The notes below the pieces were generated by a model. It was not told the origin of the DNA, searched no databases, and saw nothing but the letters and a program-made list of their open reading frames with translations. Of a DNA stretch of 64,000 nucleotides, positions 22,679 through 53,732 are shown in pieces. Position 1 is the stretch's first letter. Every line of letters begins with the position of its first letter. The DNA is from Paracoccaceae bacterium (GTDB lineage Bacteria > Pseudomonadota > Alphaproteobacteria > Rhodobacterales > Rhodobacteraceae): contig JAQWUC010000068.1 in NCBI GenBank assembly GCA_029242355.1, forward strand, positions 55,797-119,796, in the 5' to 3' direction. Position numbers and translations under genes: made by a program.

Positions 22679-22724
22679 TCGATTATAAATTTACAAAAAC
22701 TAGTTTGTATCAGGCTTTTCTAAA

Positions 22725-25969: not shown

Positions 25970-25981
25970 GTTAGATAAAAA

Positions 25982-27911: not shown

Positions 27912-27954
27912 CTCAAGTTTCCCAGTTGTCTTTATTTATATTATTTAAGAAAAT

Positions 27955-27982
27955 GCTCGAAGTGCCCTCAAGCACTCCGAGC
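27955..27982 (-). terminator. Intercistronic hairpin plus U-tract after the betaine-type SBP gene
   Basis: 11-bp stem (GCUCGGAGUGC / GCACUUCGAGC on the minus RNA) followed by AUUUUCUU. One position is G-U on the sense strand only. Confidence 0.45.
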
Positions 27983-27995
27983 CTAAAACGTACCC

Positions 27996-31898: not shown

Positions 31899-31911
31899 TA
31901 TCCTATCATTA

Positions 31912-31952
31912 ATCGAGAACTCTAACTAATTGAAAAATGGAGAGTTCTCGAT
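31912..31952 (+). terminator. Perfect 12-bp-stem hairpin between the SBP and permease genes
   Basis: ATCGAGAACTCT-N17-AGAGTTCTCGAT, read directly from the sequence. Confidence 0.45.
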
Positions 31953-31972
31953 CAAATGTCTTGAGTAAATGA

Positions 31973-33667: not shown

Positions 33668-33676
33668 ATATACTGT

Positions 33677-34441: not shown

Positions 34442-34554
34442 GTGTAAGCGATTACAGAAACATTTTAGAAATAACAAATAATATTTTGGATAAATACTGG
34501 TGGAAGCCACCATTTTATTTATTTAGGTTAAAAGAAAATCATTCAGGATCTTTC

Positions 34555-35727: not shown

Positions 35728-35739
35728 AGAGTAAAGCTA

Positions 35740-38964: not shown

Positions 38965-39874
38965 CTCTGATACCGCTAGTCTTATGTAGAAACCAATCTA
39001 CCACAAAATTTACTGCTACAGTTAAAAGCGCTATTGCAGCGGCAGGTAATAAAGGTGTTATACCTGCTTTTAAATCATATTTTGCGAATTGAATAAGTGA
39101 TGCATTTTCTCGAACCATAGAGCCCCAATCAGCAGTTGGCGGTTGAATCCCAACTCCTAGAAAAGAAAGTGCCGCTATAGAGAGAAATACAAAGCAAAAT
39201 CGTAAGCCAAATTCTGCAATTAAAGGAGGTAAAATATTTGGGAGTATTTCTTTACGCATGACCCAACCTAATCCTTCGCCCCGAAGGCGTGCCGCCTCTA
39301 CATAATCCATCACCACTACATTCAATGAAACAGCCCGCGTAAGTCGAAACACACGGGTTGAATCCAAAATAGCTATTATCATTATTAAATTAATAACCGT
39401 TGAACCAAAGATGGATAAAAGGACTAAGGCAAAAATGAGTTGCGGTATTGCCATGAGGACATCAACTGTTCTACTGAAAACCAAATCTAAATATGATCTG
39501 TTTATAGCCGCAGCTAAACCAAGGCTACCTCCTATGAGAAATGCTAACAAAGTTGTGGCAACAGCAATTCCAACCGTATTGCGTGCCCCGTAAACCATTC
39601 TCGAAAAAATATCTCTTCCGATCTGATCGGTTCCAAAAATAAATTCAGAACTCCAAGGTGCATACGGTATAGGGAACACCTCAGCTTCACCGTAAGGTGC
39701 TATTAATGGAGCAAAAATAGCTACAACCGCATAAATCAGAATTACAACCATTCCGAATCGAGCCGTCAATGGTGACTTTAGCAAAGAAATTTTTATATTG
39801 GCGAAAATTGTACGGTTTTCTCTGATGGCACCAACTTCAGATAGTGCCGAATATGTGTTTGGTTTTTCGGTCAT
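38957..39874 (-). CDS. Peptide/opine-type ABC permease (DppC-like)
   Basis: 305-aa polytopic protein with an EAA-like loop (YVEAARLRGEG). Its ends overlap both neighbouring genes. Confidence 0.9.
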   Translation of the reverse strand: MTEKPNTYSALSEVGAIRENRTIFANIKISLLKSPLTARFGMVVILIYAVVAIFAPLIAPYGEAEVFPIPYAPWSSEFIFGTDQIGRDIFSRMVYGARNTVGIAVATTLLAFLIGGSLGLAAAINRSYLDLVFSRTVDVLMAIPQLIFALVLLSIFGSTVINLIMIIAILDSTRVFRLTRAVSLNVVVMDYVEAARLRGEGLGWVMRKEILPNILPPLIAEFGLRFCFVFLSIAALSFLGVGIQPPTADWGSMVRENASLIQFAKYDLKAGITPLLPAAAIALLTVAVNFVVDWFLHKTSGIRDE

Positions 39875-40851
39875 TTTGGATGTAGCAGCCTAGGATTAGT
39901 GATAATTCCGATGATATCGGCGATTAAATTTAACAATATGTAAGTTACGGCAAAAATAAGGGCACATCCCTGAACTACAGGGATATCTCGCGTTCTAACG
40001 GCATCTACCATTAACTGCCCTATGCCTGGATATACAAAAACGACTTCAACTACCACCACTCCAACAACAAGGTAAGCTAAATTAAAAGCAATTACTGTAG
40101 CAATGGGAGCCCACGCATTAGGCAAAGCGTGCTTTATAATGATTTCCAATTGTGATGCTCCTGACAATCGTGCCATTTGAATATAGGGACTTGCTAATAA
40201 ATTAATGATGGCTGCCCGCGTCATCCGCATCATATGAGCCACAATTACCAGTGTAAGCGTTAAAGCCGGTAGTGCAGTTCGATACACTCGCTCACCAATT
40301 AAAGTATCCGCATCGACATTTGCCAAAGAAGGGAAAACTGGATAAAGCGAAGCCATTAACAAAATAAGGATGTATGCGACAAAAAATTCTGGAAATGAAA
40401 TAGTTGTTAAAGTCGCCGTGTTTACGGATCGATCAAATACAGAATTTCTAAATAAAGCCGTCGTTATACCTAGAGCTAGGGAGATAGGAACAGCAATTAT
40501 AGCCGTCATCGACGCGAGGAACATAGTGTTCCATAGTCGTGGAGCGATCAAGCCAACCACTTCTCGAGATCTATCAACGCCAGAAGCATTTCGACCAGAA
40601 AACGAAGTTCCAAGATCCCCTTGAATAGCCCCCAACACCCATTGAATGTAACGAACGAAGGGATGTTGATCTAGGCCAAGCTGCCGCCGAAATGCTGCGA
40701 CTGTCTCTGGTGTTGCCCTCTGACCTAAAATAGCCTCACCAAAATCACCTGGAAGCATCTCGATTGCTGAAAAAATAATAATGGATACGGCAAACAGAGT
40801 TAATACACCCAAGCCAAGACGCTCAAGTATTGTTTTTACAATGGAATGCAA
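39871..40851 (-). CDS. Peptide/opine-type ABC permease (DppB-like)
   Basis: 326 aa with a DppB-like N-terminus (ILERLGLGVLTLFAVSIIIFSAIEMLPGD). Confidence 0.9.
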   Translation of the reverse strand: MHSIVKTILERLGLGVLTLFAVSIIIFSAIEMLPGDFGEAILGQRATPETVAAFRRQLGLDQHPFVRYIQWVLGAIQGDLGTSFSGRNASGVDRSREVVGLIAPRLWNTMFLASMTAIIAVPISLALGITTALFRNSVFDRSVNTATLTTISFPEFFVAYILILLMASLYPVFPSLANVDADTLIGERVYRTALPALTLTLVIVAHMMRMTRAAIINLLASPYIQMARLSGASQLEIIIKHALPNAWAPIATVIAFNLAYLVVGVVVVEVVFVYPGIGQLMVDAVRTRDIPVVQGCALIFAVTYILLNLIADIIGIITNPRLLHPK

Positions 40852-40888
40852 AGAAATTCCTCGTTTAATTGGTTAAATTCAAATAATT

Positions 40889-40913
40889 TGGGCGGGCAAA
40901 AAAGGCCCACCCA
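40889..40913 (-). terminator. Intercistronic hairpin after the family-5 SBP gene
   Basis: On the minus RNA, UGGGUGGGC-cuuuuuu-GCCCGCCCA is followed by an A/U-rich tail. One position is G-U on the sense strand only. Confidence 0.45.
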
Positions 40914-40934
40914 AACAAATTTTGTTTTATAATT

Positions 40935-42530
40935 TTATGCGAACCACCAGCGCTCAACACATTTAGCGCCGTCACTATCCCAGTTAGCTGCAACTTCACC
41001 CATAGCGACTGATTTACTATTAGCACTAACATAGCTATTAAAAAGAGGCACCATCGCACCACCATCATCGCTAATAAGCCGTTGGCATTCATAATAAATT
41101 TCTCTACGTTTGGCTTCATTCAGCTCAGCTCTAGCCTCTTTCACAAGCCTATTGAATTTTTTAGCCCCATCTGTGGTTTTCCAGTTAGTATCATTCCACT
41201 TGGTATCATCGGTGTATGCAGCTGAGAACATCCAATCCTCTGTTGGTCTTCCTCCCCAGTAACATGCACACCAACCTTTAGCGTCATTATTCCAGACATT
41301 TGACCAATAGCCATCACTTGGTTCACGAACAACTTCAATCTCCATGCCCGCTTTGCTTGCTGAATTAGCAATTAGCTGAGCTGCATCAACTGCCCCAGCA
41401 AAAGCCGCATCAGAAGCTGACAATGGTATCTTTCCTGAGTGCCCCGATTTTTTATAATGGTGCGCCGCCTTATCAATATCTATTTCACGCTGCGGCATGT
41501 CACTATTATGATACCTATTGGCAGTAGAAATCGGATGATCATTTCCAACAGCACCATATCCTAATAGAATTTTATCTACCAGTTCCTGACGATTAACGGC
41601 TAATTTTAAAGCCATTCTAAGATCATAGTTACCAAATGGATCTACGTTTAATCTCATAGGAAAAGTATAATGCGCTGTTCCTGTAACATCCATGATATTT
41701 ATATTTGGATCTCGTTTGAAGAGATTAATCGTTTTTAGATCGACACGATCCATAGCATCAATTTCACCAGTCATTAATGCATTTTGTCTGGCCGTAGGAT
41801 CTATTATTGATATTAATTCTACCTCATCAAAGTGAGCCCGACCCTCTTTCCAGTAATTTGGATTTCGTTTTAAAACGCTTTTCACGCCTGGTTCAAAAGA
41901 TTGGACAATATATCCACCAGTTCCAATCCCTGAGGTCATATCACCTGCGGGTCGTATTGAAATGTGGTAATCGCTAACAATAAATGGAAAGTCAGCGTTT
42001 GCGCTTTCAAGATCAAAAATTACTCGATGGTTACCATCGGCTTTAATCGATTTCACAGCAGTCAGCAAACCCTTCGCTGCAGAAGTTGAGTCTTCACCCA
42101 TATGGTGACCATAAGATGCTAAAACATCTTCAGATGAAAATGACTTTCCATTATGGAATTCAACACCTTTTCTTAGATTAAAAATCCAAGTTTTAGCATC
42201 GTCGGACTCATAGCTTTCAGCTAACTCTCCAATAAGCTGCCCGTTATTATCAACCTCTGTCAAATGATTCCCAAAAGTATAACCATTTATAAGTGTAAAG
42301 TGGTTTTCAGAAGTAGCAGAATCAAGCGTATCCGTTGTTGAACCATGCGCCACACCAAACCTAAACAGTCCACCTCTCTTTGGCGCGGCAGCTACTGCTT
42401 GCCCAGCAAGGGTCAGAGCCGCAGGAACTGCAAGTCCTGTAGCTAACGCAGACATCATAAATTGACGTCGGTCTATTTGGCCAGCCGTTAGCTGTCCTGA
42501 AAGATGATTAATATAATTTTTTTTATTCAT
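40935..42530 (-). CDS. Family-5 (DppA/OppA-like) ABC substrate-binding protein with a Tat-type signal
   Basis: Twin-arginine leader (IDRRQFMMSALATGLAVPAALTLAGQAVAA). 531 aa. First gene of a 4-gene transporter operon. Confidence 0.9.
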   Translation of the reverse strand: MNKKNYINHLSGQLTAGQIDRRQFMMSALATGLAVPAALTLAGQAVAAAPKRGGLFRFGVAHGSTTDTLDSATSENHFTLINGYTFGNHLTEVDNNGQLIGELAESYESDDAKTWIFNLRKGVEFHNGKSFSSEDVLASYGHHMGEDSTSAAKGLLTAVKSIKADGNHRVIFDLESANADFPFIVSDYHISIRPAGDMTSGIGTGGYIVQSFEPGVKSVLKRNPNYWKEGRAHFDEVELISIIDPTARQNALMTGEIDAMDRVDLKTINLFKRDPNINIMDVTGTAHYTFPMRLNVDPFGNYDLRMALKLAVNRQELVDKILLGYGAVGNDHPISTANRYHNSDMPQREIDIDKAAHHYKKSGHSGKIPLSASDAAFAGAVDAAQLIANSASKAGMEIEVVREPSDGYWSNVWNNDAKGWCACYWGGRPTEDWMFSAAYTDDTKWNDTNWKTTDGAKKFNRLVKEARAELNEAKRREIYYECQRLISDDGGAMVPLFNSYVSANSKSVAMGEVAANWDSDGAKCVERWWFA

Positions 42531-42567
42531 GTGTTTCTCCCTTGTTGCGCGATAAGCGCTATCCTTA

Positions 42568-42601
42568 GATTTCTTTACATACTATTGGATTTCTTTACAT
42601 A
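42568..42601. repeat. Two copies of a 14-bp direct repeat GATTTCTTTACATA, starts 20 bp apart
   Basis: Copies at 42568-42581 and 42588-42601. They sit immediately downstream of, and abut, the predicted minus-strand -10 box, which is an operator-like position. Confidence 0.6.
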
Positions 42602-42628
42602 TTATAATGTCACAGTCTTTTTGATCAA
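42601..42628 (-). promoter_or_regulatory. Candidate sigma70 promoter for the Dpp-like transporter operon
   Basis: On the minus strand, TTGATC, a 16-nt spacer, then TATAAT, about 70 nt upstream of the SBP start codon. Confidence 0.45.
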
Positions 42629-42746
42629 ATGACTGATTATCCTCCAACAATTCTACGGTCTAAATCAACTGAAATAAAGTAGAACCTAATGCGATGATAA
42701 GCAATTAGACGATTCCTGCAACAATATATTTAAAAAATATTACCTC

Positions 42747-42800
42747 TATTAAGTATTCTTCCCATTATCTTCCTATTAATATTAAGTATTCTTCCCATTA
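42747..42800. repeat. Two copies of a perfect 21-bp direct repeat TATTAAGTATTCTTCCCATTA, starts 33 bp apart
   Basis: Copies at 42747-42767 and 42780-42800, about 80-130 bp upstream of the predicted plus-strand promoter. Confidence 0.6.
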
Positions 42801-42877
42801 AACGTTATCCTGAATTTTGAAGAAAAATATATTTATCGAACTACATCGAACAAATACTAATAAAAATTAGTAAAAGA

Positions 42878-42905
42878 TTGAATCAATCCTTGGCAAACGT
42901 ATAAA
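42878..42905 (+). promoter_or_regulatory. Candidate sigma70 promoter for the ThDP / transthyretin-like / DmdA-like operon
   Basis: TTGAAT, a 16-nt spacer, then TATAAA, about 55 nt upstream of the TTG start at 42960, which itself has AGGAG 7 nt upstream. Confidence 0.4.
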
Positions 42906-42959
42906 TACACGACAATAGTTAAAATAAAGTATCTAATCATAATAAATCAGGAGATCGTT

Positions 42960-44705
42960 TTGAGCGACGTACAAAAACTTCGTGGAGGGCAAATTCTAGC
43001 TCGGGCTTTGCGTGAAAAAAAAATTAAACATGTATTCACCCTCGCAGGCGGTTTTTGCAATCCTGCTCTCGAAGGCTTTATGGATTGTCAAATTCCTGTG
43101 ATCAACTGTCCCCATGAACAAATAGCAGGTCACCTAGCTGACGGACACGCTAGGATAACCCGCCAACCGACAGTATGTCTTGTCGGCCCTGAAGGGTTTT
43201 CCAATGCCGTTCCAGCCATGATGGAGGCCTGGGGCGAGAGATCCCCTGTTATTTTTATTACTGGTTCTTCAACAAAAAAAAGAGAGGGCTCTGGAGGATT
43301 CAAAGAGATAGATGATGTAGCTATAGCTGCACCTTTAACAAAGTACAGTGTATCAATATCAGATGGAACCCGCATTAAGGAATTCGTAGACCGCGCTTGG
43401 AAAATGGCAATCAATGGATATCCCGGCCCAGTACACCTTAGCTTACCTGTCGATATAATGTTTGCATCTTTCGATGAAAATGCTACATCAAAAGAAAGAC
43501 CTTTCAACTCGGTATCAAAACCCGCCCCTCGGGCTTGGCCAGACCCTGAAATTTTAGACAATATTATCGCTATAATTAAAAATGCTAAAAAGCCAATCTT
43601 GATTGGTGGACACGGTGTTTGGTGGTCTAAAACTGAACAAAAACTTAGCGCCGCGGCCGAAAAAATCAACATTCCAATATTTAACATCCCATATCATCAA
43701 AAATTGCTCGATGAAACTTGTCGAGCCTACATGGGACTAGCAGATATTCATCAATATGCACCTTCAAAATTTGCTCTTCACTCAAGTGATTGTATTATTA
43801 TGGTTGGGTGTCGGCTAGATAATCAAATGAATTTTGGAAATCCGCCGTTAATTCCAGCAGAATCAAAACTTATTTGTGTAAATGGAAGTGATGAGGAAAT
43901 AAACTATAACAGGTCAGCAGACGAGCTCTTGTTAAGCGATCCAGGAGCATTCTTTGATGGTTTGGCAGAAAATTTTTCACCATCGGAGTGGGCTATTAAA
44001 GAAGATTGGCTAGAGCAAAATATCAAAGCACGCGAGGATTGGGTGCAAACCAGTCTTCAACAACTTGATTCTGAAACAAGCGAAAAAGATTGGTCAGGCG
44101 GAATCATACATCCCTTGAAATTATCTCTTGAGGTTCAAAATGCTATGAGTGATGGTGATTGGTTGGTTTTTGACGGTGGGAATACACACTTTTGGTCAGA
44201 AATTGCTGTGAATATTGCTTCAAAAAATGGTCGAAAATTTGGTGGGATTTTACATCCCGGATCATATAGTTTGCTTGGGGTGGGCGTATCATTCGCGCTC
44301 TCTGCTAAAAATACCAATCGAGATAAAACAGTTGTTCTTATTTCTGGTGATGGTGCATTTTTGTCAGGCGGACTATCAATCGAAGCAGCTTTTCAAGAAA
44401 ATTTACCGATAGTGGTGGTTATTGATAACAATGGAGGTCTGGATTGTATATCACAACAACAAGAAAGACTATTTTCAAGTGGAACACATTTTGCCACCGA
44501 CTTTCGGGACATTCCTTTTCATAACTTATTTGAAGGAATGGGGGGGCATGGAGAACTCGTAACCCATCGTGCTGATATATCCGCCGCTGTAAAACGCGCC
44601 ATTGCAAGCGGTAAACCCGCCTGTGTTAATGTAAAGGCAAGAGGCGTGATTAGTCCTATTGTGGCGGCAACCAGCGACAAACGCGATAAAGCATCAATTG
44701 AATGA
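42960..44705 (+). CDS. ThDP-dependent enzyme of the acetolactate-synthase / oxalyl-CoA-decarboxylase / 2-hydroxyacyl-CoA-lyase superfamily
   Basis: PHEQIAGHLADGHARITRQP (catalytic Glu context), GSSTKKREGSGGFKEID, and the ThDP motif GDGAFLSGGLSIEAA...IDNNGG. 581 aa. Confidence 0.85.
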   Translation: MSDVQKLRGGQILARALREKKIKHVFTLAGGFCNPALEGFMDCQIPVINCPHEQIAGHLADGHARITRQPTVCLVGPEGFSNAVPAMMEAWGERSPVIFITGSSTKKREGSGGFKEIDDVAIAAPLTKYSVSISDGTRIKEFVDRAWKMAINGYPGPVHLSLPVDIMFASFDENATSKERPFNSVSKPAPRAWPDPEILDNIIAIIKNAKKPILIGGHGVWWSKTEQKLSAAAEKINIPIFNIPYHQKLLDETCRAYMGLADIHQYAPSKFALHSSDCIIMVGCRLDNQMNFGNPPLIPAESKLICVNGSDEEINYNRSADELLLSDPGAFFDGLAENFSPSEWAIKEDWLEQNIKAREDWVQTSLQQLDSETSEKDWSGGIIHPLKLSLEVQNAMSDGDWLVFDGGNTHFWSEIAVNIASKNGRKFGGILHPGSYSLLGVGVSFALSAKNTNRDKTVVLISGDGAFLSGGLSIEAAFQENLPIVVVIDNNGGLDCISQQQERLFSSGTHFATDFRDIPFHNLFEGMGGHGELVTHRADISAAVKRAIASGKPACVNVKARGVISPIVAATSDKRDKASIE

Positions 44706-44714
44706 AAGTTTAAA

Positions 44715-45056
44715 ATGATTTCATTAAGTACCCACACACTTGACTCTTCGACTGGGACCCATGCGGCTGGAATAAGTGTGAAATTATTTGCAAACAGCAA
44801 TAATAAACTCATTGAATTATGGAGTAGACTTACAGATGAAGGCGGTCGATTAAAGGTTGAATTTGAAATAGACCCTCAACACCAAAATTGCGAATTGCTA
44901 CTCTCATATAACATTGCTAGCTATTTTATGAAAACTGCAAAAGGCGTTCAAACCAAGTCTGTAAGTTTAACTATCAAATTACCTGACCCTAATGGGACCT
45001 ATCATTTGCCAATAATTATTTCGCCACATGGCGCTTCTTTATGGTGGTCAAATTAA
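44715..45056 (+). CDS. Transthyretin-like protein (5-hydroxyisourate hydrolase family) with a non-canonical C-terminus
   Basis: LSTHTLDSSTGTHAAGISV, TDEGGR and YHLPIIISPHG align with HIUase patterns, but the C-terminus is LWWSN instead of the diagnostic YRGS. Confidence 0.75.
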   Translation: MISLSTHTLDSSTGTHAAGISVKLFANSNNKLIELWSRLTDEGGRLKVEFEIDPQHQNCELLLSYNIASYFMKTAKGVQTKSVSLTIKLPDPNGTYHLPIIISPHGASLWWSN

Positions 45057-45072
45057 AATAAAAGGGATTTAA

Positions 45073-46191
45073 ATGACATTGAGTAATTTAAAAATGTCAC
45101 GGCGAATTAGGCGAACTCCGTTCACTGACAAAGTTGAATGGCATGGCGTAACAGGTTTTACCGTAGTAAATCATACATTGCTTCCAAAATCATTTCAAAA
45201 TACAGTTGAAGAAGATTATTGGCACCTTCGAGATAAAGTGCAGATTTGGGATGTTGGGTGTCAAAGACAAGTACAAATTTCAGGTCCTGATGCAAAAAAA
45301 TTAGTGCAGTGGATTACCCCTCGTGATCTAACTAGAGCAATACCTGGTAAATGTTTATACGTTCCGCTAATTACAGAGGATGCAGGGTTTATCAATGATC
45401 CAGTACTTTTAAAATTATCAGAAAGTAAATATTGGCTATCGATTGCTGATTCTGATGTACTACTTTGGGTAAGAGGACTAGCTTTGGGTGCTAAGCTCAA
45501 AGTCGAAATAATCGAACCAGACGTGTGGCCACTTGCAATACAGGGCCCTAAAGCAGTTCACGTTATGGCAGAAGTCTTTGGTTCAAGAGTTCGAGACATA
45601 AAATTTTTTAATTTTGATTGGTTCGATTTTGAAGATTCTAAACAGTTAATTGCTCGATCTGGGTACTCAAAACAAGGTGGCTTTGAGATTTATTTACAGG
45701 GTAGCAAATATGGGTCACGGCTATGGGAGAAAATATTTGAAGCTGGAATAAAATACGATATACGCCCAGGATCACCAAACATTATTGAAAGAATAGAGGC
45801 GGGATTGCTTTCCTATGGAAACGAGATGACCATTCAAGACAATCCGTTAGAATGTGGCTTAGATAAATATTGTGATCTATCTGATCAAATAGAATATATT
45901 GGAAAAAAAAAACTTCACTCAATTGCAAAAAATGGATTAACAAAACGAATAAGAGGGGTTCGTTTTACCGGGAAGCCGATGGCAGCGTGCAGTATTCCCT
46001 GGCCAGTGATGTCAAAAGCAACAAATAAAACTATTGGTAAAATTACTTCTGGAATTTATTCGCCGAGGCTCAAAATGAATATTGGTCTTTCAATGATCCA
46101 AAAAGATCATTGGGATCCTGGAACAAAAGTACTTGTTCAGACTGAACATGGAAAAGTTATCAATGGTGAGATCTGTAGTTTGCCATTTTAA
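45073..46191 (+). CDS. GcvT-family aminomethyltransferase, DMSP-demethylase (DmdA)-like
   Basis: SRRIRRTPF, VVNHTLLP, VQIWDVGCQRQVQISGPDA, ARSGYSKQGGFEIY and NIIERIEAGLLSYGNEM parallel my memory of DmdA-clade sequences. 372 aa. Confidence 0.7.
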   Translation: MTLSNLKMSRRIRRTPFTDKVEWHGVTGFTVVNHTLLPKSFQNTVEEDYWHLRDKVQIWDVGCQRQVQISGPDAKKLVQWITPRDLTRAIPGKCLYVPLITEDAGFINDPVLLKLSESKYWLSIADSDVLLWVRGLALGAKLKVEIIEPDVWPLAIQGPKAVHVMAEVFGSRVRDIKFFNFDWFDFEDSKQLIARSGYSKQGGFEIYLQGSKYGSRLWEKIFEAGIKYDIRPGSPNIIERIEAGLLSYGNEMTIQDNPLECGLDKYCDLSDQIEYIGKKKLHSIAKNGLTKRIRGVRFTGKPMAACSIPWPVMSKATNKTIGKITSGIYSPRLKMNIGLSMIQKDHWDPGTKVLVQTEHGKVINGEICSLPF

Positions 46192-46214: not shown

Positions 46215-47186
46215 CTAATCCACCATTGAATAACGAAAAACCACCGGTGCCTGACCGGAAAACTTTTTAAAAGATCGTGAAAAAGAAGCAGTAGAGGAAT
46301 ATCCCGTTCGTAATCCAATTTCCTGAACCGTAAGATTCGTATCTTTCAATAAACGTTCGGCCGACTTTAATCTTAACCGATTAAAATAAACAGCTGGGCT
46401 TAAACCAACCTGCGCATTAAATAATGTTTCAAGACGCCTTGAAGAAATTTTCACATTTTTCGCAATAGCAGCAATTGTAATTGGACAATCTATTCTAGCT
46501 TCCATCAATCTTATAGCATTGGCCACGCGTGGTTCTCTTTCTTCTAGGCACCCAAATGAAACGAACGGTTGAGGATCCGCCGGGTGGCTCGTAGACGAGT
46601 ATATAAATACGCTAGAAACATCGTAAGCTAATGCCGCGACAAATTTTTCTTCAATAAAAGCCAAAAGGAAATCAAACGATGGGGATGCGCCTCCAACTGT
46701 TACGTATTTTTTGCCTGCAACGAAACGATCAGCCACAACATCAATTTTCGAAAACTCATCCGAGAAACGTTCCAGGTCTTCCCAGTGGGTTGTCGCCTTC
46801 TTACCGTCAAGAGCTCCTGTTTTTGCCAAAAGCCAAGTTCCTCCTTCAATTGAAACAACTTTGTGAAAACTAGACAGGACCCTTTTCAACCGAATTGGCG
46901 TTACAGGTAAAGCCTTATTTAAGGCATCAAATCCTCCAATAATAATTAACAAATCACCTCGCTCATTATCTAAAAAGCGGCCGTTTACCGGTAATGAAAT
47001 ACCGCAGGTTAGATCTACCGATAAGCCTCTTGGAGATACCAGCTTCCAACGAAAAATTTCTTTACCCGCTATTCTATTTGCAGCGCGCATTGGATCTATT
47101 GTAGAGGCAACCGTCATCAGTGAACTTGAGGGAATAAGCAAAATAGTTACTGTAAGATACTCTAAGCTTTGAATTTTCTTTTCCAT
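46215..47186 (-). CDS. GlxA-family transcriptional regulator (DJ-1/PfpI-like plus AraC HTH), CdhR/GbdR-like, second copy
   Basis: MEKKIQSLEYLTVTILLIP...DPMRAANRI parallels the regulator at 20617-21660, with a C-terminal AraC HTH. The start is taken at the ATG at 47186, because the track's longer ORF would overlap the divergent BKACE gene. Confidence 0.85.
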   Translation of the reverse strand: MEKKIQSLEYLTVTILLIPSSSLMTVASTIDPMRAANRIAGKEIFRWKLVSPRGLSVDLTCGISLPVNGRFLDNERGDLLIIIGGFDALNKALPVTPIRLKRVLSSFHKVVSIEGGTWLLAKTGALDGKKATTHWEDLERFSDEFSKIDVVADRFVAGKKYVTVGGASPSFDFLLAFIEEKFVAALAYDVSSVFIYSSTSHPADPQPFVSFGCLEEREPRVANAIRLMEARIDCPITIAAIAKNVKISSRRLETLFNAQVGLSPAVYFNRLRLKSAERLLKDTNLTVQEIGLRTGYSSTASFSRSFKKFSGQAPVVFRYSMVD

Positions 47187-47272
47187 TTCGTAAAATAACA
47201 ATAAAAGTGCGGAAAATGTCAATAAAATTTTAAATATCAATTTATCATAAAAAAACTCAGAAAGTATGAACG

Positions 47273-48181
47273 ATGCCATTAGAACCAAATAAAGAAGTAT
47301 TCATTACATGCGCTGTCACTGGATCAGGAAGCACACAAGAACGAAGCCCGTATGTTCCCAGAAGTCCTAAAGAAATTGCGACTAGCGCAATAGAAGCGGC
47401 AAACGCGGGAGCAGCAGTAGTTCATTGCCATGTCAGGGACCCTCAAACAGGTAAGCCATCACGAAATCTGGAATACTACAGAGAAGTAACCAATTTAATA
47501 AGGGCGTCATCAACAGATGTAATTCTAAACTTGACTGCTGGAATGGGAGGAGATCTCGTCTTAGGCGGAACGGAATCTCCTCTTCCACCGATCTCAGGAA
47601 CTGATATGATCGGTGCTAAGGCTAGGATTGAACACATCGAAATGTGCCTACCAGAACTTTGTACTCTTGATTGTGGAACAATGAACTTTGCTGAAGCTGA
47701 TTACGTAATGACCAATACACCAGGAATATTGCGTGAAATGGGTTCCATGATGACCACAATTGGTGTTAAACCTGAGATCGAGGCATTCGACACTGGACAC
47801 TTATGGTTCGCAAAACAACTTGTTCAGGAAGGCATACTCGATTTCCCAGCATTAGTTCAGCTATGCATGGGAGTTCCTTGGGGAGCTCCAGATGATTTGA
47901 ACACATTTATGGCGATGGTTAATAACGTGCCAAAGGAGTGGAATTGGTCAGCTTTCTCCTTGGGGCGCCACCAAATGTCTTATGTCGCTGCGTCAGTTCT
48001 GGCTGGGGGGAATGTCCGAGTTGGTCTAGAAGATAACTTATGGCTTGAAAAAGGCGTTTTAGCAACAAACGCACAACTTGTAACAAAGGCCGTAAACCTT
48101 ATTGAAGGGCTAGGATCCAAAATTATGACGCCAAGTGAAGTTAGATCAAAGTTGGGGCTTGTTAAAAGGTCTCCAAAATGA
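47273..48181 (+). CDS. BKACE-family (DUF849) beta-keto acid cleavage enzyme, second copy
   Basis: [40 protein letters not shown]. Confidence 0.85.
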   Translation: MPLEPNKEVFITCAVTGSGSTQERSPYVPRSPKEIATSAIEAANAGAAVVHCHVRDPQTGKPSRNLEYYREVTNLIRASSTDVILNLTAGMGGDLVLGGTESPLPPISGTDMIGAKARIEHIEMCLPELCTLDCGTMNFAEADYVMTNTPGILREMGSMMTTIGVKPEIEAFDTGHLWFAKQLVQEGILDFPALVQLCMGVPWGAPDDLNTFMAMVNNVPKEWNWSAFSLGRHQMSYVAASVLAGGNVRVGLEDNLWLEKGVLATNAQLVTKAVNLIEGLGSKIMTPSEVRSKLGLVKRSPK

Positions 48182-49686
48182 ATTCTTCACTCAATTTATT
48201 AAATATCGCGTGCATTGGCTGCGGTGTGATTGGTGCTGGTTGGATAGCACGATTCATCGAAAATGGTGTAAACGTCAGTATTTTCGATCCCGGACCAAAA
48301 GCAGAATTAAATGTCAAACGAACATTGGAAAATGCTGAAACCGCATATGCAAATTTAACATCAATTCCAAGGATAAAAAAAGGTACGATCAGTTTCAAAA
48401 AATCAATAAATGAAGCTGTTAAAAATGTTGATCTAATAATTGAAAGTGTTCCAGAAAGAGTTGATATAAAACAAAAAGTATACTCAGAAATTGAACAATA
48501 CTGTGATAAGTCCACACTTATAACTTCTTCAACATCAGGTATTATGCCGTCTGAGCTGCAAAAAAATTTAAAATCTCCTGATCGCTTCTATGTAGGCCAT
48601 CCTTTCAATCCAGTTTACTTACTTCCATTAGTAGAAATTGTTGGAGGGAGAAATACCTCCAAGGCAACTATTTCAAGAGCTAAGTCAATTTACAAACAAA
48701 TTGGAATGCATCCAGTCCATATAAAAAAAGAAATTGACGCATTCGTTGCTGATAGACTTCTTGAAGCTATATGGAGAGAATCTTTATGGCTTATTAAAGA
48801 TGGAATTTGTACTACCGCGGAACTTGATGATATAGTTAGATTTGGATTCGGTCTTAGATATGCTCAAATGGGTGTTTTTGATACTTACCGAGTGGCAGGT
48901 GGCGACGCTGGAATGCGTCATTTTATGGCGCAATTTGGCCCTTGCTTAAAGTGGCCATGGACAAAGCTCATGAATGTTCCTGAATTCAATGCAGAATTAG
49001 TCGAATTAATCTCATCACAATCTGATGAACAATCTGGTCACTTAAATATTCGCGAAATGGAAAGACTTCGAGACTCAAATTTAATCGAAATACTAAAAGG
49101 TCTAAAGAAAAATAATTGGGGAGCTGGAAAAAATTTAAGAGACTATGAAGCATCTTTAAAGGCATTTAATGATAAAAATACGTCTACCACTAACATGGAA
49201 TCAAATACAATAAAAACGTTAAAAACGCGCGTTCCTTCAGATTGGGTCGATTATAATGGACACATGAATGAAGCTAGGTATCTAGATTGTTTTTGTGAGG
49301 CCACGGACCAATTTATGAAAATAATTGGTTGTGATGCCGACTATGTTAAAAAAGGAGGCTCTTACTTTACGGTTGAAACTCATATTCGACACATGGCAGA
49401 AACAAAAATTGGAGAATCCTTGTCGATAGAAACACAATTAATTTCTGGTACGGGAAAAAAGATGCATTTATTTCACACTATGAGAAACAGTAGCAACGTA
49501 ATAACTGCTACAGGAGAACATATGCTAATACACGTGTCGTTGAAGACAAGATCTGCTAGCGAACCGTCCTCAAATATCTTAAAGAACCTTAGCACAATAT
49601 TTAACCGGCACTCAAAATTGCCTTGGCCCAAAGGCTTAGGAAACGCCATAAATAATCCAAAACCTGATCAGAGTTTTAAAGAGTAA
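48178..49686 (+). CDS. lcdH: L-carnitine dehydrogenase fused to a C-terminal hotdog-fold thioesterase-like domain
   Basis: The N-terminal ~320 aa are collinear with remembered Pseudomonas L-carnitine dehydrogenase (GCGVIGAGW, VGHPFNPVYLLPLVEIVGG, EIDAFVADRLLEAIWRE, AGGDAGMRHFMAQFGPCLKWPWT). The C-terminal ~150 aa (DWVDYNGHMNEARYL...YFTVETHIRH) are 4HBT-like. Confidence 0.85.
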   Translation: MNSSLNLLNIACIGCGVIGAGWIARFIENGVNVSIFDPGPKAELNVKRTLENAETAYANLTSIPRIKKGTISFKKSINEAVKNVDLIIESVPERVDIKQKVYSEIEQYCDKSTLITSSTSGIMPSELQKNLKSPDRFYVGHPFNPVYLLPLVEIVGGRNTSKATISRAKSIYKQIGMHPVHIKKEIDAFVADRLLEAIWRESLWLIKDGICTTAELDDIVRFGFGLRYAQMGVFDTYRVAGGDAGMRHFMAQFGPCLKWPWTKLMNVPEFNAELVELISSQSDEQSGHLNIREMERLRDSNLIEILKGLKKNNWGAGKNLRDYEASLKAFNDKNTSTTNMESNTIKTLKTRVPSDWVDYNGHMNEARYLDCFCEATDQFMKIIGCDADYVKKGGSYFTVETHIRHMAETKIGESLSIETQLISGTGKKMHLFHTMRNSSNVITATGEHMLIHVSLKTRSASEPSSNILKNLSTIFNRHSKLPWPKGLGNAINNPKPDQSFKE

Positions 49687-49694
49687 GAGGGAAA

Positions 49695-50858
49695 ATGGAC
49701 TTTAAAGTTTCAGAAGAACAAGAAATGATTATAACTACAACAAAAGCATTTGTTGAAAAGGAACTATATCCTCACGAAGAATTAATAGAGAAAACTGGAA
49801 CTTTACCTTCGGAGCTAATAAAAGAAGTTCAAAAAAAAGCCATAACAGCCGGTTTATATGCCGCAAACATTCCAGAAGAATTTGGTGGTGGTGGCCTCGA
49901 TACACTCAGTTGGCTATTGTTTGAAAAAGAGCTGGGACGAGCTAATTATGCCCTTCACTGGACTTGTGTGGCACGACCCTCAAATATTCTCTGCGCAGGA
50001 ACTCCAGAACAACGAAAGAAGTACTTAGAACCGTGCATCCGCGGAGATACCTGGGACTGTCTCGCTATGACAGAACCAGAGGCTGGATCTGATTTACGAG
50101 GGATGAAAGCCTCGGCACAAAAAGATGGTGATGACTGGATACTAAATGGTACAAAGCATTTTATTTCACACGCAGACATAGCTGATTTTTCCATTGTATT
50201 TATGGCGACTGGTGAAGAAACAACTCCTCGTGGACCAAAAAAACTCATAACGGCATTTTTTGTAGATAAAGGAACGCCTGGATTTGAAATAAGAGGCGGT
50301 TATAAAAACGTATCCCATCGAGGATATACAAATTCTATTTTGGAATTTAATGATTGCCGATTACCGAATGAAAATATTCTAGGCGAAATCCATGGTGGAT
50401 TTGAAGTTGCTAATAACTGGCTCGGAGCTACAAGATTACAAGTCGCAGCCACGTGCATCGGACGCGCCGAGAGAGCATTTGAGCACTCAATAAACTGGTC
50501 TGCGAACCGAAAACAATTCGGACAATCGATTGGAAAATTTCAAGGCATTTCGTTTAAATTAGCCGATATGGCTGTAGAGATAAAGGCCTCTAATCTGATG
50601 GTCCTAGAAGCTGGTTGGAAATATGATCAAAACACCGTTACCGACGCAGATATGGCAATGGCTAAACTCAAAGCAACAGAAGTTCTGGCTATGGTGGCTG
50701 ATGAATCAATTCAAATTCATGGAGGCATGGGGCTCATGGAAGAACTTCCACTCGAAAGAATCTGGCGCGACGCGCGTCTAGAGAGAATCTGGGAAGGAAC
50801 CTCAGAAATACAACGACATATAATAAGTCGATCACTACTGAGGAATGTGGGTGGCTAA
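49695..50858 (+). CDS. Acyl-CoA dehydrogenase, second copy
   Basis: Paralogue of 22725-23879 (AMTEPEAGSD, QIHGGMGLMEE, RIWEGTSEIQ). Confidence 0.9.
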   Translation: MDFKVSEEQEMIITTTKAFVEKELYPHEELIEKTGTLPSELIKEVQKKAITAGLYAANIPEEFGGGGLDTLSWLLFEKELGRANYALHWTCVARPSNILCAGTPEQRKKYLEPCIRGDTWDCLAMTEPEAGSDLRGMKASAQKDGDDWILNGTKHFISHADIADFSIVFMATGEETTPRGPKKLITAFFVDKGTPGFEIRGGYKNVSHRGYTNSILEFNDCRLPNENILGEIHGGFEVANNWLGATRLQVAATCIGRAERAFEHSINWSANRKQFGQSIGKFQGISFKLADMAVEIKASNLMVLEAGWKYDQNTVTDADMAMAKLKATEVLAMVADESIQIHGGMGLMEELPLERIWRDARLERIWEGTSEIQRHIISRSLLRNVGG

Positions 50859-50863
50859 TTATA

Positions 50864-52993: not shown

Positions 52994-53732
52994 AGTCAGG
53001 ATAAATAGACCGAAAGCAAACGCTATTGATCTCAAAACTTCTCGTAAAATGGGAGAAATTTTTGCTGATTTTAGAGATAACCCCAAGTTGCAGGTTGCTA
53101 TACTCACTGCAGAGGGTGAAAAATTCTTTTGCCCTGGTTGGGACCTCAAAGCGGCGGCTGAGGGCGATGCAGTCGATGGTGATTACGGGGTTGGAGGCTT
53201 CGGTGGACTACAAGAACTACCCCAACTGAACAAGCCAGTCATTGCAGCCATTAACGGTATTTGTTGCGGAGGTGGACTAGAAATTGCACTTTCATGCGAT
53301 ATTATTCTTGCGGCAACGCACGCAAGCTTTGCCCTACCAGAGATACGTTCAGGCACCATCGCCGATGCTGCTTCAATTAAACTTCCAAAGAGAATACCAT
53401 ATCACATTGCAATGGAGCTTTTGTTGACAGGACGGTGGCTAGATGCCTTAGAAGCTCATAAATGGGGCTTTGTCAACGAAATTATTGACCCCGCAAATTT
53501 ATTAAGTCGAGCCTACGAACTTGCAACCTTAATTTCTTCAGGACCTCCATTAGTGATAAGTGCGATCAAGCAAGTAGTACGAGAAGCGGAAGATAAAAAT
53601 TTTCAAGATATGCTTAACCGAATAACAAAACGTCAAGTTGAGACAGTAGATAAACTTTACAGCTCTGAAGATCTCCTTGAAGGTCAATTAGCATTCACGG
53701 AAAAACGAGAGCCAAAATGGCAAGGAAAATAA
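52944..53732 (+). CDS. caiD: Carnitinyl-CoA dehydratase / crotonobetainyl-CoA hydratase-like crotonase, second copy
   Basis: GKILEVRINRPKANAID, FCPGWDLKAAAEG, GGFGGL, LNKPVIAAING..GGGLEIA, EKREPKWQGK. The ATG at 52944 has AAGGAGAG upstream and overlaps the ligase 3' end by 50 nt. Confidence 0.85.
   Translation: MSTETPIKTEITGKILEVRINRPKANAIDLKTSRKMGEIFADFRDNPKLQVAILTAEGEKFFCPGWDLKAAAEGDAVDGDYGVGGFGGLQELPQLNKPVIAAINGICCGGGLEIALSCDIILAATHASFALPEIRSGTIADAASIKLPKRIPYHIAMELLLTGRWLDALEAHKWGFVNEIIDPANLLSRAYELATLISSGPPLVISAIKQVVREAEDKNFQDMLNRITKRQVETVDKLYSSEDLLEGQLAFTEKREPKWQGK

Follow-up and report, generated by a model that had tools for sequence, protein, structure and literature searches.

A widespread gene trio of a ThDP enzyme, a transthyretin-like protein and a DmdA-family methyltransferase suggests an undescribed pathway acting on a methylated organic acid that probably contains sulfur

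A trio of genes in a 64-kb window (the whole stretch of DNA analyzed here, from a Paracoccaceae bacterium) encodes a ThDP-dependent enzyme, a transthyretin-like protein (TLP) and a GcvT-family protein, and lies at the center of an operon that is widespread among marine and soil bacteria but unstudied. The operon points to an undescribed pathway acting on a methylated, probably sulfur-containing organic acid. Our tentative reading, to which we give somewhat less than an even chance, is that the trio is the conserved heart of a self-contained module that breaks down a methyl-sulfonium 2-hydroxy or 2-oxo acid, with 4-dimethylsulfonio-2-hydroxybutyrate (DMSHB) as the leading guess. A literature search found no published description of a ThDP-TLP-GcvT module, in keeping with the first-pass annotation of this DNA, which was aware of no described pathway with this gene combination.

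The trio and its genomic setting

The identities of the three genes are observed directly, and they are arranged as follows:
42960..44705, plus strand, ThDP enzyme gene (581 aa)
44715..45056, plus strand, TLP gene (113 aa)
45073..46191, plus strand, GcvT-family gene (372 aa)
The ORF coordinates agree with the three plus-strand genes described earlier at 42960-46191, the gaps being exactly 9 nt (ThDP/TLP) and 16 nt (TLP/GcvT), and the ThDP gene starts with TTG, 8 nt 3' of AGGAG. Identical proteins are deposited as MDG2475142-44 ('Paracoccaceae bacterium' MAG) under the names thiamine pyrophosphate-binding protein, hydroxyisourate hydrolase and dimethylsulfoniopropionate demethylase.

Synteny is strict and is likewise a direct observation. 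The order ThDP-TLP-GcvT, on the same strand, is conserved in related genomes at about 22 independent loci of at least two proteobacterial classes, with hosts among SAR11, Roseobacter/Paracoccaceae, SAR116, Rhizobiales, Sphingomonadales and Gammaproteobacteria. In the gene tables neighboring genes overlap by up to 4 nt or are up to 28 nt apart, except at one 70-nt junction in locus L036. All five best GcvT matches that were looked up lie within the module, as do the four ThDP orthologues looked up, each with a TLP gene directly downstream. An FMN_dh gene stands directly upstream of the trio at 11 of 15 clustered loci and also in L032-L036; no FMN-dependent alpha-hydroxy-acid oxidase was found anywhere in the 64-kb window. 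The conserved unit is thus normally four enzymes, with the FMN oxidase upstream of ThDP, TLP and GcvT, plus an importer. That importer is usually of the Dpp-type ABC or the TRAP class, and a LysR regulator gene is usually linked as well. Two exceptions are known: in L036, FMN_dh-ThDP-TLP is followed by an unrelated secreted protein where GcvT is expected, and in L006/L007 (one gammaproteobacterial MAG) neither a ThDP nor a GcvT gene lies near the TLP gene, so the demethylase need not be encoded in cis.

In the window an importer cluster, annotated with Pfam/NCBIfam, is divergent from the trio:
37351..42530, minus strand, Dpp/Opp-type ABC importer (whole cluster)
40935-42530, minus strand, SBP_bac_5 binding protein
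39871-40851, minus strand, permease
38957-39874, minus strand, permease
37351-38964, minus strand, fused double ATPase
It probably brings in the substrate of the module. A homologous SBP_bac_5 system adjoins the module in L003, L009, L010/11, L019 and L020, and in L032 this system and FMN_dh-ThDP-TLP-GcvT make up one co-directional eight-gene operon. In other lineages a TRAP system takes its place; TRAP systems generally transport carboxylates. Between importer and trio lies a 429-nt divergent promoter region (42531..42959) with a perfect 21-nt direct repeat (copies at 42747 and 42780) and a 20-nt direct repeat of 90% match (copies at 42565 and 42585), both of which are candidate operator sites judging by sequence; promoter-like hexamers in this region were no more frequent than in shuffles.

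Downstream of the trio are a regulator gene and a further operon:
46215..47288, minus strand, GbdR/CdhR-like AraC regulator (Pfam HTH_18 + DJ-1_PfpI)
47273..55582, plus strand, carnitine/gamma-butyrobetaine-type operon (Pfam/NCBIfam)
The regulator gene, which scores 189 bits on the GbdR model (below the cutoff of 480), points toward the trio and away from the second operon, and its product probably controls that operon rather than the trio. The TTG taken as its first codon overlaps the beginning of BKACE, and translation therefore probably begins further in. The operon encodes BKACE, a carnitine 3-dehydrogenase-thioesterase (NF005716, 730 bits against a cutoff of 592), an acyl-CoA dehydrogenase, an ADP-forming acyl-CoA synthetase, a CaiD-like hydratase, an esterase and an HIBADH-like dehydrogenase. 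This layout occurs in L001, L002 and L019 only; because the carnitine-type operon is beside the module in no other lineage, it is context and not part of the conserved module.

The three proteins

By its domain content the first product is a ThDP-dependent enzyme of the ALS/OXC/benzaldehyde-lyase superfamily (TPP_enzyme_N/M/C, 109/101/91 bits), with the cofactor glutamate in P-H-E53-Q and the ThDP motif GDG(463)...NN(490). Its nearest solved structures, at only ~190 bits, are benzaldehyde lyase and 2-hydroxyacyl-CoA lyase/oxalyl-CoA decarboxylase, which bears out the earlier description of an oxalyl-CoA-decarboxylase/HACL/ALS-like enzyme, and it falls under every NCBIfam equivalog cutoff (best 262 bits against 587). 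It is the best-conserved member of the module, with orthologues sharing 64-74% identity over SAR11, Rhizobiales, Sphingomonadales and Gammaproteobacteria.

The TLP contains H7-T-L-D, G43-G44-R45 and Y96-H97-L-P and ends in ...SLWWSN, and the translation thus confirms the motifs, and the missing YRGS, reported from the first reading. It scores 56.7 bits on Pfam Transthyretin (PF00576), its AF2 model (pLDDT 92.9) has HIUases as best Foldseek matches, and alignment to PucM, Brucella HIUase and the E. coli TLP shows that His7, Arg45 and His97 are retained. These likenesses, together with the deposited name, are what would favor a standard purine-catabolic 5-hydroxyisourate hydrolase whose position here is coincidental. 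However, the HIUase equivalog TIGR02962 is scored at 61.4, below its cutoff of 87.45, the C-terminal YRGS is replaced by WWSN, and position 16 is His and not Pro (G-T-H-A versus G-x-P-A). The purine genes that such an enzyme would accompany are also absent: uricase, OHCU decarboxylase, allantoinase and allantoicase were not detected by Pfam and/or NCBIfam among window ORFs of at least 150 aa, as had been claimed for purine degradation, and no purine-catabolic gene occurs at any of the about 22 related trio loci. The scan covered every such ORF except one of 185 aa (43130-43687, minus strand) nested antisense within the ThDP gene; two window ORFs had no family match. With its strict synteny with ThDP and DmdA-family genes in addition, an ordinary HIUase placed here by chance is exceedingly improbable, and these signatures indicate that the TLP is not a 5-hydroxyisourate hydrolase.

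The altered residues are a directly observed subfamily signature. Pro16 is mostly replaced by His and YRGS by W-x-S, and in family alignments and the profile search the two co-vary: W-x-S proteins have G-x-H-A, and YRGS proteins have G-x-P-A. Of the best 150 representatives in the profile search, at least 84 end in W-x-S, and His7/Arg45/His97 and W-x-S are kept throughout the subfamily down to ~30% identity. The TLP belongs to a large, distinct and apparently undescribed subfamily of the transthyretin/HIUase fold. The proposal that it was recruited to a non-purine role is well supported, given the conserved synteny, the lack of purine genes and a non-canonical GcvT. Since the His/Arg/His pocket is kept and YRGS is exchanged for Trp-x-Ser, the TLP's probable role is to bind or transform an intermediate of the ThDP step that is specific to this pathway, and an onium head group would fit well into a pocket lined with Trp.

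Alternatively, the TLP might be no enzyme at all but a small subunit that assists or regulates the ThDP enzyme, or a partner of that enzyme that binds a ligand, by analogy with acetolactate synthase, where the gene for a small subunit follows that for the large one; the ThDP enzyme is itself of the ALS superfamily. The TLP gene is directly 3' of the ThDP gene at nearly every locus with visible upstream DNA, spaced from a 4-nt overlap to a 21-nt gap, also in the GcvT-less L036, and the protein evolves far faster (30-38% identity, against 64-74% for the ThDP enzyme at the same loci). We consider this rather improbable, since conservation of the catalytic HIUase residues and the new W-x-S across the subfamily is hard to account for without a functional pocket, and one MAG carries the TLP without a ThDP gene. 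Such a role would be compatible with the preferred reading of the remaining operon genes.

The third product is assigned by its sequence to a trio-linked orthogroup of DmdA-family, THF-dependent methyltransferases of the GcvT fold (GCV_T + GCV_T_C, 135/49 bits). It passes the NCBIfam DMSP-demethylase model NF009133 (546.9 bits, cutoff 410) and stays below the cutoffs of both canonical GcvT models shown (166.7 vs 300; 152.2 vs 235.85); these scores and the tree show that it is not a canonical glycine-cleavage T protein. An 87% bootstrap clade unites trio GcvTs with P. ubique and Roseobacter DmdAs; monophyly of the trio clade has an NJ bootstrap of just 57%. The earlier placement in the GcvT family stands, and "DmdA-like" was too weak a term, as membership of the DmdA family, in a separate orthogroup, is directly observed. 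NF009133 gives 547-580 bits for the trio GcvTs, 600-681 for DmdAs from DMSP contexts and 359-380, under the cutoff, for other GcvT-like proteins. The window protein shares 47% identity with P. ubique DmdA (PDB 3tfh) and 47-49% with Roseobacter DmdAs whose genes accompany dmdB/C/D or acuI. Its diagnostic residues V32, Q64 and Y120 correspond to P. ubique Y32, E63 and W119.

It is distinctly unlikely that the GcvT is an ordinary DMSP demethylase of an environmentally defined dmdA clade, acting on imported DMSP, with the ThDP enzyme, TLP and FMN oxidase unrelated or providing an alternative fate for MMPA. The passed equivalog cutoff, the deposited name and functional DmdAs that bracket the trio GcvT in the tree all fit this, and functional DmdAs may diverge more than the window protein: SAR92 DmdAs that are merely 35-40% identical to ratified DmdAs demethylate DMSP (PMC10746254). 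By the same token, sulfonium methyl transfer is expected for the trio GcvTs, which are 44-51% identical. However, Roseobacter, SAR11 and SAR92 DmdAs adjoin dmdB/dmdC/dmdD/acuI, orthologues of which were found near none of the trio loci examined, and the Pelagibacteraceae trio GcvTs (two single-cell genomes) are just 48-49% identical to P. ubique DmdA and of a different orthogroup. The fixed gene order and tight or overlapping junctions with ThDP, TLP and FMN_dh argue for a single pathway, and DMSP and MMPA are neither 2-hydroxy nor 2-oxo acids, so the FMN and ThDP enzymes would be left without a substrate.

Candidate substrates and a proposed pathway

We infer the substrate, reaction order and TLP chemistry from the enzyme classes and neighboring genes. 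In most bacteria the operon comprises an importer, an FMN-dependent alpha-hydroxy-acid oxidase, the ThDP enzyme, the TLP and the DmdA-family methyltransferase under LysR control. A carboxylate bearing an S-methyl onium group would be imported, the FMN enzyme would oxidize its 2-hydroxy acid function to a 2-oxo acid, the ThDP enzyme would decarboxylate or cleave this to a product one carbon shorter, and the DmdA-family enzyme would pass one S-methyl group to tetrahydrofolate, giving 5-methyl-THF. The window lineage lacks the FMN oxidase gene, so another oxidase or a transaminase would be needed there. For DMSHB, a guess drawn by analogy from the enzyme classes, the route would lead to DMSP and then demethylation, and the FMN and ThDP enzymes would supply the 'DMSHB decarboxylase' activity, whose enzymes are described as still unidentified and as widespread, also in non-producers such as Rhizobium (PMC11306096). 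The first-pass idea of THF-dependent demethylation plus ThDP-dependent C-C cleavage of a methylated onium compound fits this evidence; its conserved operon and non-purine TLP held, and it was incomplete in missing the FMN oxidase and importer and the DmdA-family membership of the GcvT.

Several neighbors touch on this reading. The importer type (SBP_bac_5 ABC or TRAP) is in its favor, as are sulfur-related neighbors: the Hoeflea sp. TYP-13 module has an SBP56 (methanethiol-oxidase family) gene after it, and thiolase and class IV aminotransferase genes lie downstream in Pelagibacterales. An aldehyde dehydrogenase, needed for decarboxylation to DMSP, adjoins the module solely in Hoeflea, where its gene comes before the module. 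Also against it are the absent FMN oxidase of the window lineage, the loci without GcvT in cis (L036, L006/L007), the low bootstrap for trio GcvT monophyly, and a ThDP enzyme whose closest solved relatives are 2-hydroxyacyl-CoA or benzoin lyases and not simple 2-oxo-acid decarboxylases.

The recurring MttB (three lineages), PhyH (two) and, in the window lineage, carnitine neighbors would fit an N-methyl substrate. This could be a quaternary-ammonium relative of carnitine, glycine betaine or butyrobetaine with a 2-hydroxy/2-oxo acid, the DmdA-family enzyme having shifted to N-methyl transfer. In the window lineage the trio abuts the BKACE/carnitine-dehydrogenase operon and its GbdR/CdhR-like regulator, in L002 nothing of the kind separates GcvT from BKACE and the trio runs directly into the operon, and the window holds another cluster of this sort, which includes an OpuAC betaine transporter. 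Planktomarina, Rhizobiaceae and Pelagibius have an MttB-family methyltransferase gene next to the module, in Planktomarina directly upstream of it, PhyH dioxygenase genes are close by at two loci, and the trio GcvTs invariantly carry Y32V and E63Q relative to DmdAs from DMSP contexts. Such a substrate is nonetheless unlikely: betaine or carnitine genes are absent beside the module at most loci, the SBP56 gene adjoins the Hoeflea module, and the GcvT sits inside the DmdA clade, whose sole known chemistry is sulfonium-to-THF methyl transfer. In the known N-demethylations by GcvT-fold proteins (DMGDH, SoxA, Tdm), an amine oxidase takes part as a fused domain or as a partner, and the product is methylene-THF.

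Comparison with known systems

The TLP model superposes on HIUases of E. coli, Brucella, Herbaspirillum and Bacillus (transthyretin fold, TM-score ~0.8), and the protein shares with PucM and HiuH/YedX (TIGR02962) the His/Arg/His pocket, a length of ~113 aa and a cytoplasmic location. It differs in W-x-S-x for Y-R-G-S and G-x-H-A for G-x-P-A and, unlike the HIUases of urate catabolism, it scores below the family cutoff, lacks purine-catabolic neighbors and forms its own large subfamily. Carnitine/gamma-butyrobetaine catabolism (CdhR-type regulator, carnitine dehydrogenase, BKACE and BcoA-D-like enzymes) is represented by the neighboring operon in the window lineage, and its substrate too is an onium carboxylate.

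The ThDP enzyme aligns over its full three-domain length with OXC, HACL and benzaldehyde lyase in the PDB (about 150-193 bits), but reaches only 220 bits on the NCBIfam models of OXC (cutoff 557) and HACL (cutoff 600), and the module has no conserved CoA ligase or transferase. The catalytic His29 of benzaldehyde lyase (BAL) is presumably matched by Phe, from alignment by eye, and benzoylformate decarboxylase is remote kin (70-80 bits). The proposed FMN and ThDP steps follow the logic of the mandelate pair, in which MdlB (FMN (S)-mandelate dehydrogenase) and MdlC (benzoylformate decarboxylase) convert a 2-hydroxy acid to a 2-oxo acid and then to an aldehyde one carbon shorter. Most trio loci likewise have FMN_dh directly 5' of ThDP, but the window has no FMN enzyme, the module adds TLP and methyltransferase genes, and its substrate is only proposed.

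The closest relatives of the trio GcvT are the DmdAs of Ruegeria pomeroyi (SPO1913) and Pelagibacter ubique (SAR11_0246), with which it shares fold, family and a passing NF009133 score, as well as R11, T15, H50, Q56, N249, R293, W344 and the E204/Y206 folate region, which separate DmdA-type from other GcvT-like proteins. It differs as a separate orthogroup of predicted activity, with invariant Y32V and E63Q and with W119F/Y (P. ubique numbering). The trio gene is never beside acuI or the dmdB/C/D genes of the DmdABCD pathway and is found nearly always 3' of the ThDP and TLP genes.

The three-gene module and its conservation

The trio in the window consists of the following genes:

42960-44705, plus strand: ThDP enzyme, 581 aa (Pfam TPP_enzyme_N/M/C)
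44715-45056, plus strand: transthyretin-like protein (TLP), 113 aa (Pfam Transthyretin, PF00576)
45073-46191, plus strand: GcvT-family protein, 372 aa (Pfam GCV_T and GCV_T_C)

These ORF coordinates bear out the first-pass annotation, which had described three same-strand genes with gaps of 9 and 16 nt. The same three proteins are in GenBank (MDG2475142-44, from a Paracoccaceae MAG) as thiamine pyrophosphate-binding protein, hydroxyisourate hydrolase and dimethylsulfoniopropionate demethylase, and the last two of these names are at least partly misleading. The divergent promoter region (42531-42959) contains a perfect 21-nt direct repeat (starting at 42747 and 42780) and a 20-nt tandem repeat (at 42565 and 42585, 90%), which are candidate operator sites. 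An AraC regulator ORF lies at 46215-47288, and its mechanical TTG start overlaps the start of the divergent BKACE gene (47273-48181) by 16 nt; since the homologue at the related locus L001 has 323 aa rather than the 357 aa in the window, the true start is probably further downstream.

Relatives were gathered through TLP homologues and their contigs, through a TLP-alignment scan in which each GTDB species was represented by one genome, and from the contigs on which five of the top GcvT matches and four ThDP matches lie. In a tblastn map of these contigs the ThDP-TLP-GcvT arrangement, constant in order and strand, occurs in about 22 independent loci, so that synteny of the three genes holds in related genomes. 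The sources include Pelagibacteraceae single-cell genomes, Pelagibacterales MAGs, Planktomarina, other Paracoccaceae, Candidatus Puniceispirillum (SAR116), Rhizobiaceae, Hyphomicrobiaceae, Parasphingorhabdus, Granulosicoccaceae and one MAG labelled Deltaproteobacteria, together with Hoeflea sp. TYP-13 and Pelagibius sp. Alg239-R121, whose records name strains rather than MAGs and which both have the full module. Thiolinea MAGs contain close ThDP and GcvT homologues, seen as protein matches only. At their junctions the module genes overlap by as much as 4 nt or lie as much as about 28 nt apart. Identity to the window proteins is uneven across the loci: the ThDP enzyme keeps 64-74%, GcvT 53-62% and the TLP no more than 30-38%.

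Two exceptions to the arrangement were found. In one, L036 (a 775-kb contig), FMN_dh, an FMN-dependent alpha-hydroxy-acid oxidase/dehydrogenase gene, is followed by the ThDP and TLP genes and then, in the place of GcvT, by a gene (12179-13318) for an unrelated protein of 379 aa that is predicted to be secreted, for which no Pfam entry is on record and which has no relative in the PDB. In the other, two TLP copies occur without ThDP or GcvT (L006/L007, one gammaproteobacterial MAG). A search of a plasmid collection did not find an orthologue of the ThDP enzyme, and its GcvT matches were the Roseobacter DMSP demethylases (DmdAs) used as anchors below. A full-text literature search returned nothing on this gene combination or on TLPs ending in W-x-S, in agreement with the earlier remark that its author was aware of no described pathway with these genes. 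All four protein families are known; the operon, the W-x-S TLP subfamily and the trio-linked DmdA orthogroup appear undescribed in the searchable literature.

The three encoded proteins

The GcvT protein had been likened to DMSP demethylase from its motifs, and this resemblance stands: it passes the NCBIfam DmdA model NF009133 (546.9 bits, cutoff 410) and groups with DmdAs in a phylogenetic tree. On this model the DmdA of P. ubique (3tfh) and those of Roseobacter plasmids score 600-681, the trio-linked proteins 547-580, and other GcvT-like proteins 359-380, which is under the cutoff. The Roseobacter plasmid proteins are good anchors because of their genetic contexts, dmdC-dmdD-dmdB-dmdA or dmdA-acuI-SBP56. 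The window protein is not a canonical glycine-cleavage T-protein, as it fails the cutoffs of three GcvT models (NF001567, 166.7 vs. 300; TIGR00528, 152.2 vs. 235.85; NF010093, 119 vs. 459). In a neighbor-joining tree (200 bootstraps) of P. ubique DmdA, Roseobacter DmdAs, 16 trio proteins and other GcvT-like proteins, the trio clade falls with the ratified DmdAs in one clade (87% bootstrap) apart from the other GcvT-like proteins; the three lineages within it are roughly equidistant, and their branching order has only 52-57% support.

Identities follow the same pattern, with 44-51% between trio GcvTs and DMSP-context DmdAs, 42-44% between P. ubique and Roseobacter DmdAs, and 55-72% between trio GcvTs and the window protein. 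The Pelagibacteraceae trio GcvTs are paralogues and not the SAR11 dmdA product, since their identity to P. ubique DmdA is no higher than 48-49%. Residues Y32, E63, W119 and I336 of P. ubique are invariant in DMSP-context DmdAs, where the trio-linked proteins have V32 and Q63 (16 of 16) and, in most cases, F/Y119 and L336. Trp197 of P. ubique DmdA has been cited as DMSP-specific (PMC7487153) and was rejected as a discriminator, as both Roseobacter DmdAs and trio proteins have Tyr at this position. More divergent SAR92 proteins, 35-40% identical to ratified DmdAs, still complement an R. pomeroyi dmdA mutant (PMC10746254), and for this reason methyl transfer from a sulfonium to tetrahydrofolate (THF) would be the default expectation for the trio GcvT. 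A DmdA-like paralogue (40% identical, 380 bits, below the DmdA cutoff) is encoded on a Loktanella salsilacus plasmid (L027, 4001-9100) in the order GcvT-like, OsmC, enoyl-CoA hydratase, acyl-CoA synthetase (47% identical to DmdB) and SBP56, which looks like a further unstudied demethylation-type cluster.

The TLP has a transthyretin fold (PF00576, 56.7 bits). Foldseek matches its AF2 model (pLDDT 92.9) best to the 5-hydroxyisourate hydrolases (HIUases) of E. coli, Herbaspirillum, Brucella, Salmonella and Bacillus (TM-score ~0.8). The motifs reported for it at first pass are exact (H7-T-L-D, G-G-R45, Y-H97-L-P), as is the lack of a C-terminal Y-R-G-S, the chain ending in S-L-W-W-S-N. Aligned with PucM, Brucella HIUase and the E. 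coli TLP, it keeps the conserved His, Arg and His of the pocket as H7, R45 and H97, which are invariant across the subfamily, and does not keep the YRGS end. It falls below the cutoffs of the HIUase equivalog TIGR02962 (61.4 vs. 87.45) and of NF011610 (32 vs. 217). All trio-linked TLPs end in [S/A]-P-x-x-x-[S/T]-x-W-x-S-x(0-5), compared with Y-S-T-Y-R-G-S in HIUases, and have G-x-H-A, rarely G-x-S-A, in place of the N-terminal G-x-P-A.

A TLP profile search of 1.84 billion representatives (E<=1e-3) gave 2234 relatives. At least 84 of the best 150 have the W-x-S ending, and the classic YRGS/G-x-P-A proteins form a separate, lower scoring set, the top-ranked of which have about 260-290 aa, roughly double the TLP length. 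Judged by these counts and by the separate ranking of the YRGS proteins, the W-x-S TLPs are not a degenerate copy but a subfamily in their own right, large and discrete. A role in purine catabolism was rejected. An ORF scan with Pfam and/or NCBIfam, which took in all ORFs of at least 150 aa except one of 185 aa antisense within the ThDP gene, found no family of urate or allantoin catabolism in the window, as had been noted from the sequence, and genes for urate oxidase, OHCU decarboxylase and allantoin metabolism are absent from the 64 kb and from the ~22 related loci alike. The replacement of both the cationic Arg and the small Gly-Ser end by Trp residues would, we infer, give a more aromatic pocket that suits an onium head group. 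A possible role of the TLP is to bind or convert a ThDP-reaction intermediate; another is to partner the ThDP enzyme. A gene-fusion ("Rosetta stone") clue was discarded, as there is just one long W-x-S TLP (P0197), and its fusion to DUF4268 looks like read-through.

The ThDP enzyme contains the cofactor-activating Glu (E53), the GDG463-NN490 motif and the N, M and C domains by Pfam. Its description as related to oxalyl-CoA decarboxylase (OXC), 2-hydroxyacyl-CoA lyase (HACL) and acetolactate synthase (ALS) is right as to superfamily architecture and does not extend to any specific family, since every cutoff failed, the best NCBIfam score being 262 vs. 587 (ALS PRK05858), with 220 vs. 557 for OXC, 220 vs. 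600 for HACL and 178 vs. 620 for Xsc. Among enzymes of solved structure it comes closest to benzaldehyde lyase, 2-hydroxyacyl-CoA lyases and oxalyl-CoA decarboxylases (~150-193 bits). All 120 clusters listed, from diverse taxa, are at least 70% identical to the enzyme, some having hundreds to thousands of metagenomic members, and in the four orthologues looked up the TLP gene directly follows in each. Two analogies for the ThDP-TLP pair were set aside, that with glyoxylate carboligase/hyi (~80 bits to Gcl, no other support) and that with acetolactate synthase/decarboxylase (nothing else in support).

Neighboring genes and the candidate substrate

When all adjoining ORFs at 15 loci were clustered, 11 of these loci had FMN_dh (PF01070) immediately ahead of the ThDP gene, and it is present in L032-L036 as well. 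The module importer is a Dpp/Opp-type ABC system (SBP_bac_5 binding protein) or a TRAP transporter, a LysR regulator is usual, and in L032 the SBP_bac_5-type importer and the module form one co-directional operon of eight genes. For the SBP_bac_5 protein and for a TRAP DctP, the closest relatives of solved structure (<=90 bits) are too distant for a ligand hint. In Hoeflea sp. TYP-13 (L033, 3888-16638) the order is ALDH, TRAP DctPQM, FMN_dh, ThDP, TLP and GcvT, then LysR (minus strand), with SBP56 (methanethiol-oxidase family), ferredoxin and a CoA-binding protein beyond. The Pelagibacterales module has thiolase and class IV aminotransferase neighbors; in L010/L011 from this group a second, distant GcvT-like gene (4414-5640, 31-33% identical) lies between the SBP_bac_5 importer and the module, and Peptidase_S51 is immediately 5' of FMN_dh. 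Peptidase_S51 recurs in four to five lineages and Ldh_2 in two.

The main rival to a sulfonium is a quaternary-ammonium substrate, which is suggested by the window lineage (window, L001, L002, L019 and L020), where the trio adjoins a carnitine/gamma-butyrobetaine-type operon, and by the recurrent MttB-family methyltransferase (three lineages) and PhyH (two lineages) neighbors at other loci. This lineage is a variant of the module: beside having that adjoining operon, it has no FMN_dh gene anywhere in the 64 kb. In the window the importer (37351-42530) is divergent from the trio. The adjoining ADP-forming acyl-CoA synthetase was compared with the DMSP lyase DddX and is uninformative, being equidistant from DddX and 3-hydroxypropionate-CoA ligase (~186-190 bits).

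On the side of a sulfonium, the general scheme is that a carboxylate would be imported, the FMN enzyme would oxidize the 2-hydroxy acid to a 2-oxo acid, a ThDP-dependent decarboxylation or cleavage would follow, and the DmdA-family enzyme would move the sulfonium methyl group to THF; we give this scheme a little less than an even chance. To our knowledge, 4-dimethylsulfonio-2-hydroxybutyrate (DMSHB) is the sole well-known natural compound that literally fits all three activities, and its oxidation and decarboxylation would generate the DMSP skeleton, the substrate of DmdA-type enzymes, although we regard this specific version as unlikely. According to one paper (PMC11306096), the DMSHB-decarboxylating enzymes have yet to be identified and are widespread, occurring also in non-producers, Rhizobium among them, whereas R. 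pomeroyi is without this activity. The module is a concrete candidate for that step. The SBP56 and aldehyde dehydrogenase of Hoeflea and the class IV aminotransferase of Pelagibacterales, each from one lineage, are consistent with methylthio and aldehyde intermediates.

Several other clusters in the window are of note. That at 16271-28997 is a second, paralogous onium-compound cluster with genes for an aldehyde dehydrogenase, a luciferase-like monooxygenase, an enoyl-CoA hydratase, a 3-hydroxyacyl-CoA/carnitine-type dehydrogenase, a GbdR-like AraC regulator (minus strand), BKACE, an acyl-CoA dehydrogenase, an ADP-forming acyl-CoA synthetase and an OpuAC-type betaine ABC importer (minus strand). 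The genome thus has two BKACE/ACAD/ACS sets with different transporters, which perhaps serve different betaines or a sulfonium analogue. Beside the trio's importer is a guanidino/arginine-type cluster (31161-37347) with an amino-acid ABC binding protein and permease, an ADI/DDAH-family protein (33677-34513, minus strand), an aminotransferase and a ThDP enzyme that passes the 5-guanidino-2-oxopentanoate decarboxylase model (662 bits, cutoff 500). L019 has this aminotransferase-ThDP pair beside its importer as well. At 13286-14944 (minus strand), next to an alpha/beta hydrolase, is a gene of unusual architecture in which a family III CoA-transferase is joined to a flavin-reductase domain. A histone-deacetylase-family (acetylpolyamine amidohydrolase-like) gene adjoins an arginase-family gene (10365-12617), and a second arginase-family gene is at the window end (63128-63808).

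Consequences for dmdA as a marker

The dmdA gene serves as a marker for the share of marine DMSP that is demethylated as opposed to cleaved to the climate-active gas DMS. A large and taxonomically broad set of proteins annotated as DmdA, with members in SAR11, SAR116 and pelagic relatives of Roseobacter, is firmly tied to a different and apparently unstudied operon, and the trio-type clusters have hundreds to thousands of member sequences. If these enzymes use another sulfonium, or only DMSP that the cell itself makes from one, the gene-based accounting of DMSP fate would have to be corrected and a new organosulfur flux would appear. In the same way, a large transthyretin-fold subfamily is defined that is now mis-annotated as hydroxyisourate hydrolase.

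The joint reading, that the operon encodes an undiscovered, globally abundant non-DMSP sulfonium pathway in which the TLP has a catalytic function other than HIU hydrolysis and to which a sizeable share of ocean "dmdA" sequences belongs, is in our estimate doubtful. If it is true, the TLP would be the first transthyretin-fold enzyme to catalyze something besides HIU hydrolysis, those ocean-metagenome sequences would lie outside the classical DMSP demethylation route and, in the DMSHB version, the operon would hold the long-sought oxidative decarboxylation activity. These questions are directly testable because the full module is present in two cultured strains, Pelagibius sp. Alg239-R121 and Hoeflea sp. 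TYP-13, the latter being the most suitable organism for experiments. As to the known DMSP systems, orthologues of dmdB, dmdC, dmdD (acuH) and acuI are near the trio at none of its loci, whereas the DmdAs of Phaeobacter, Marinovum, Antarctobacter, P. ubique and SAR92 all have dmdB/C/D or acuI as neighbors.
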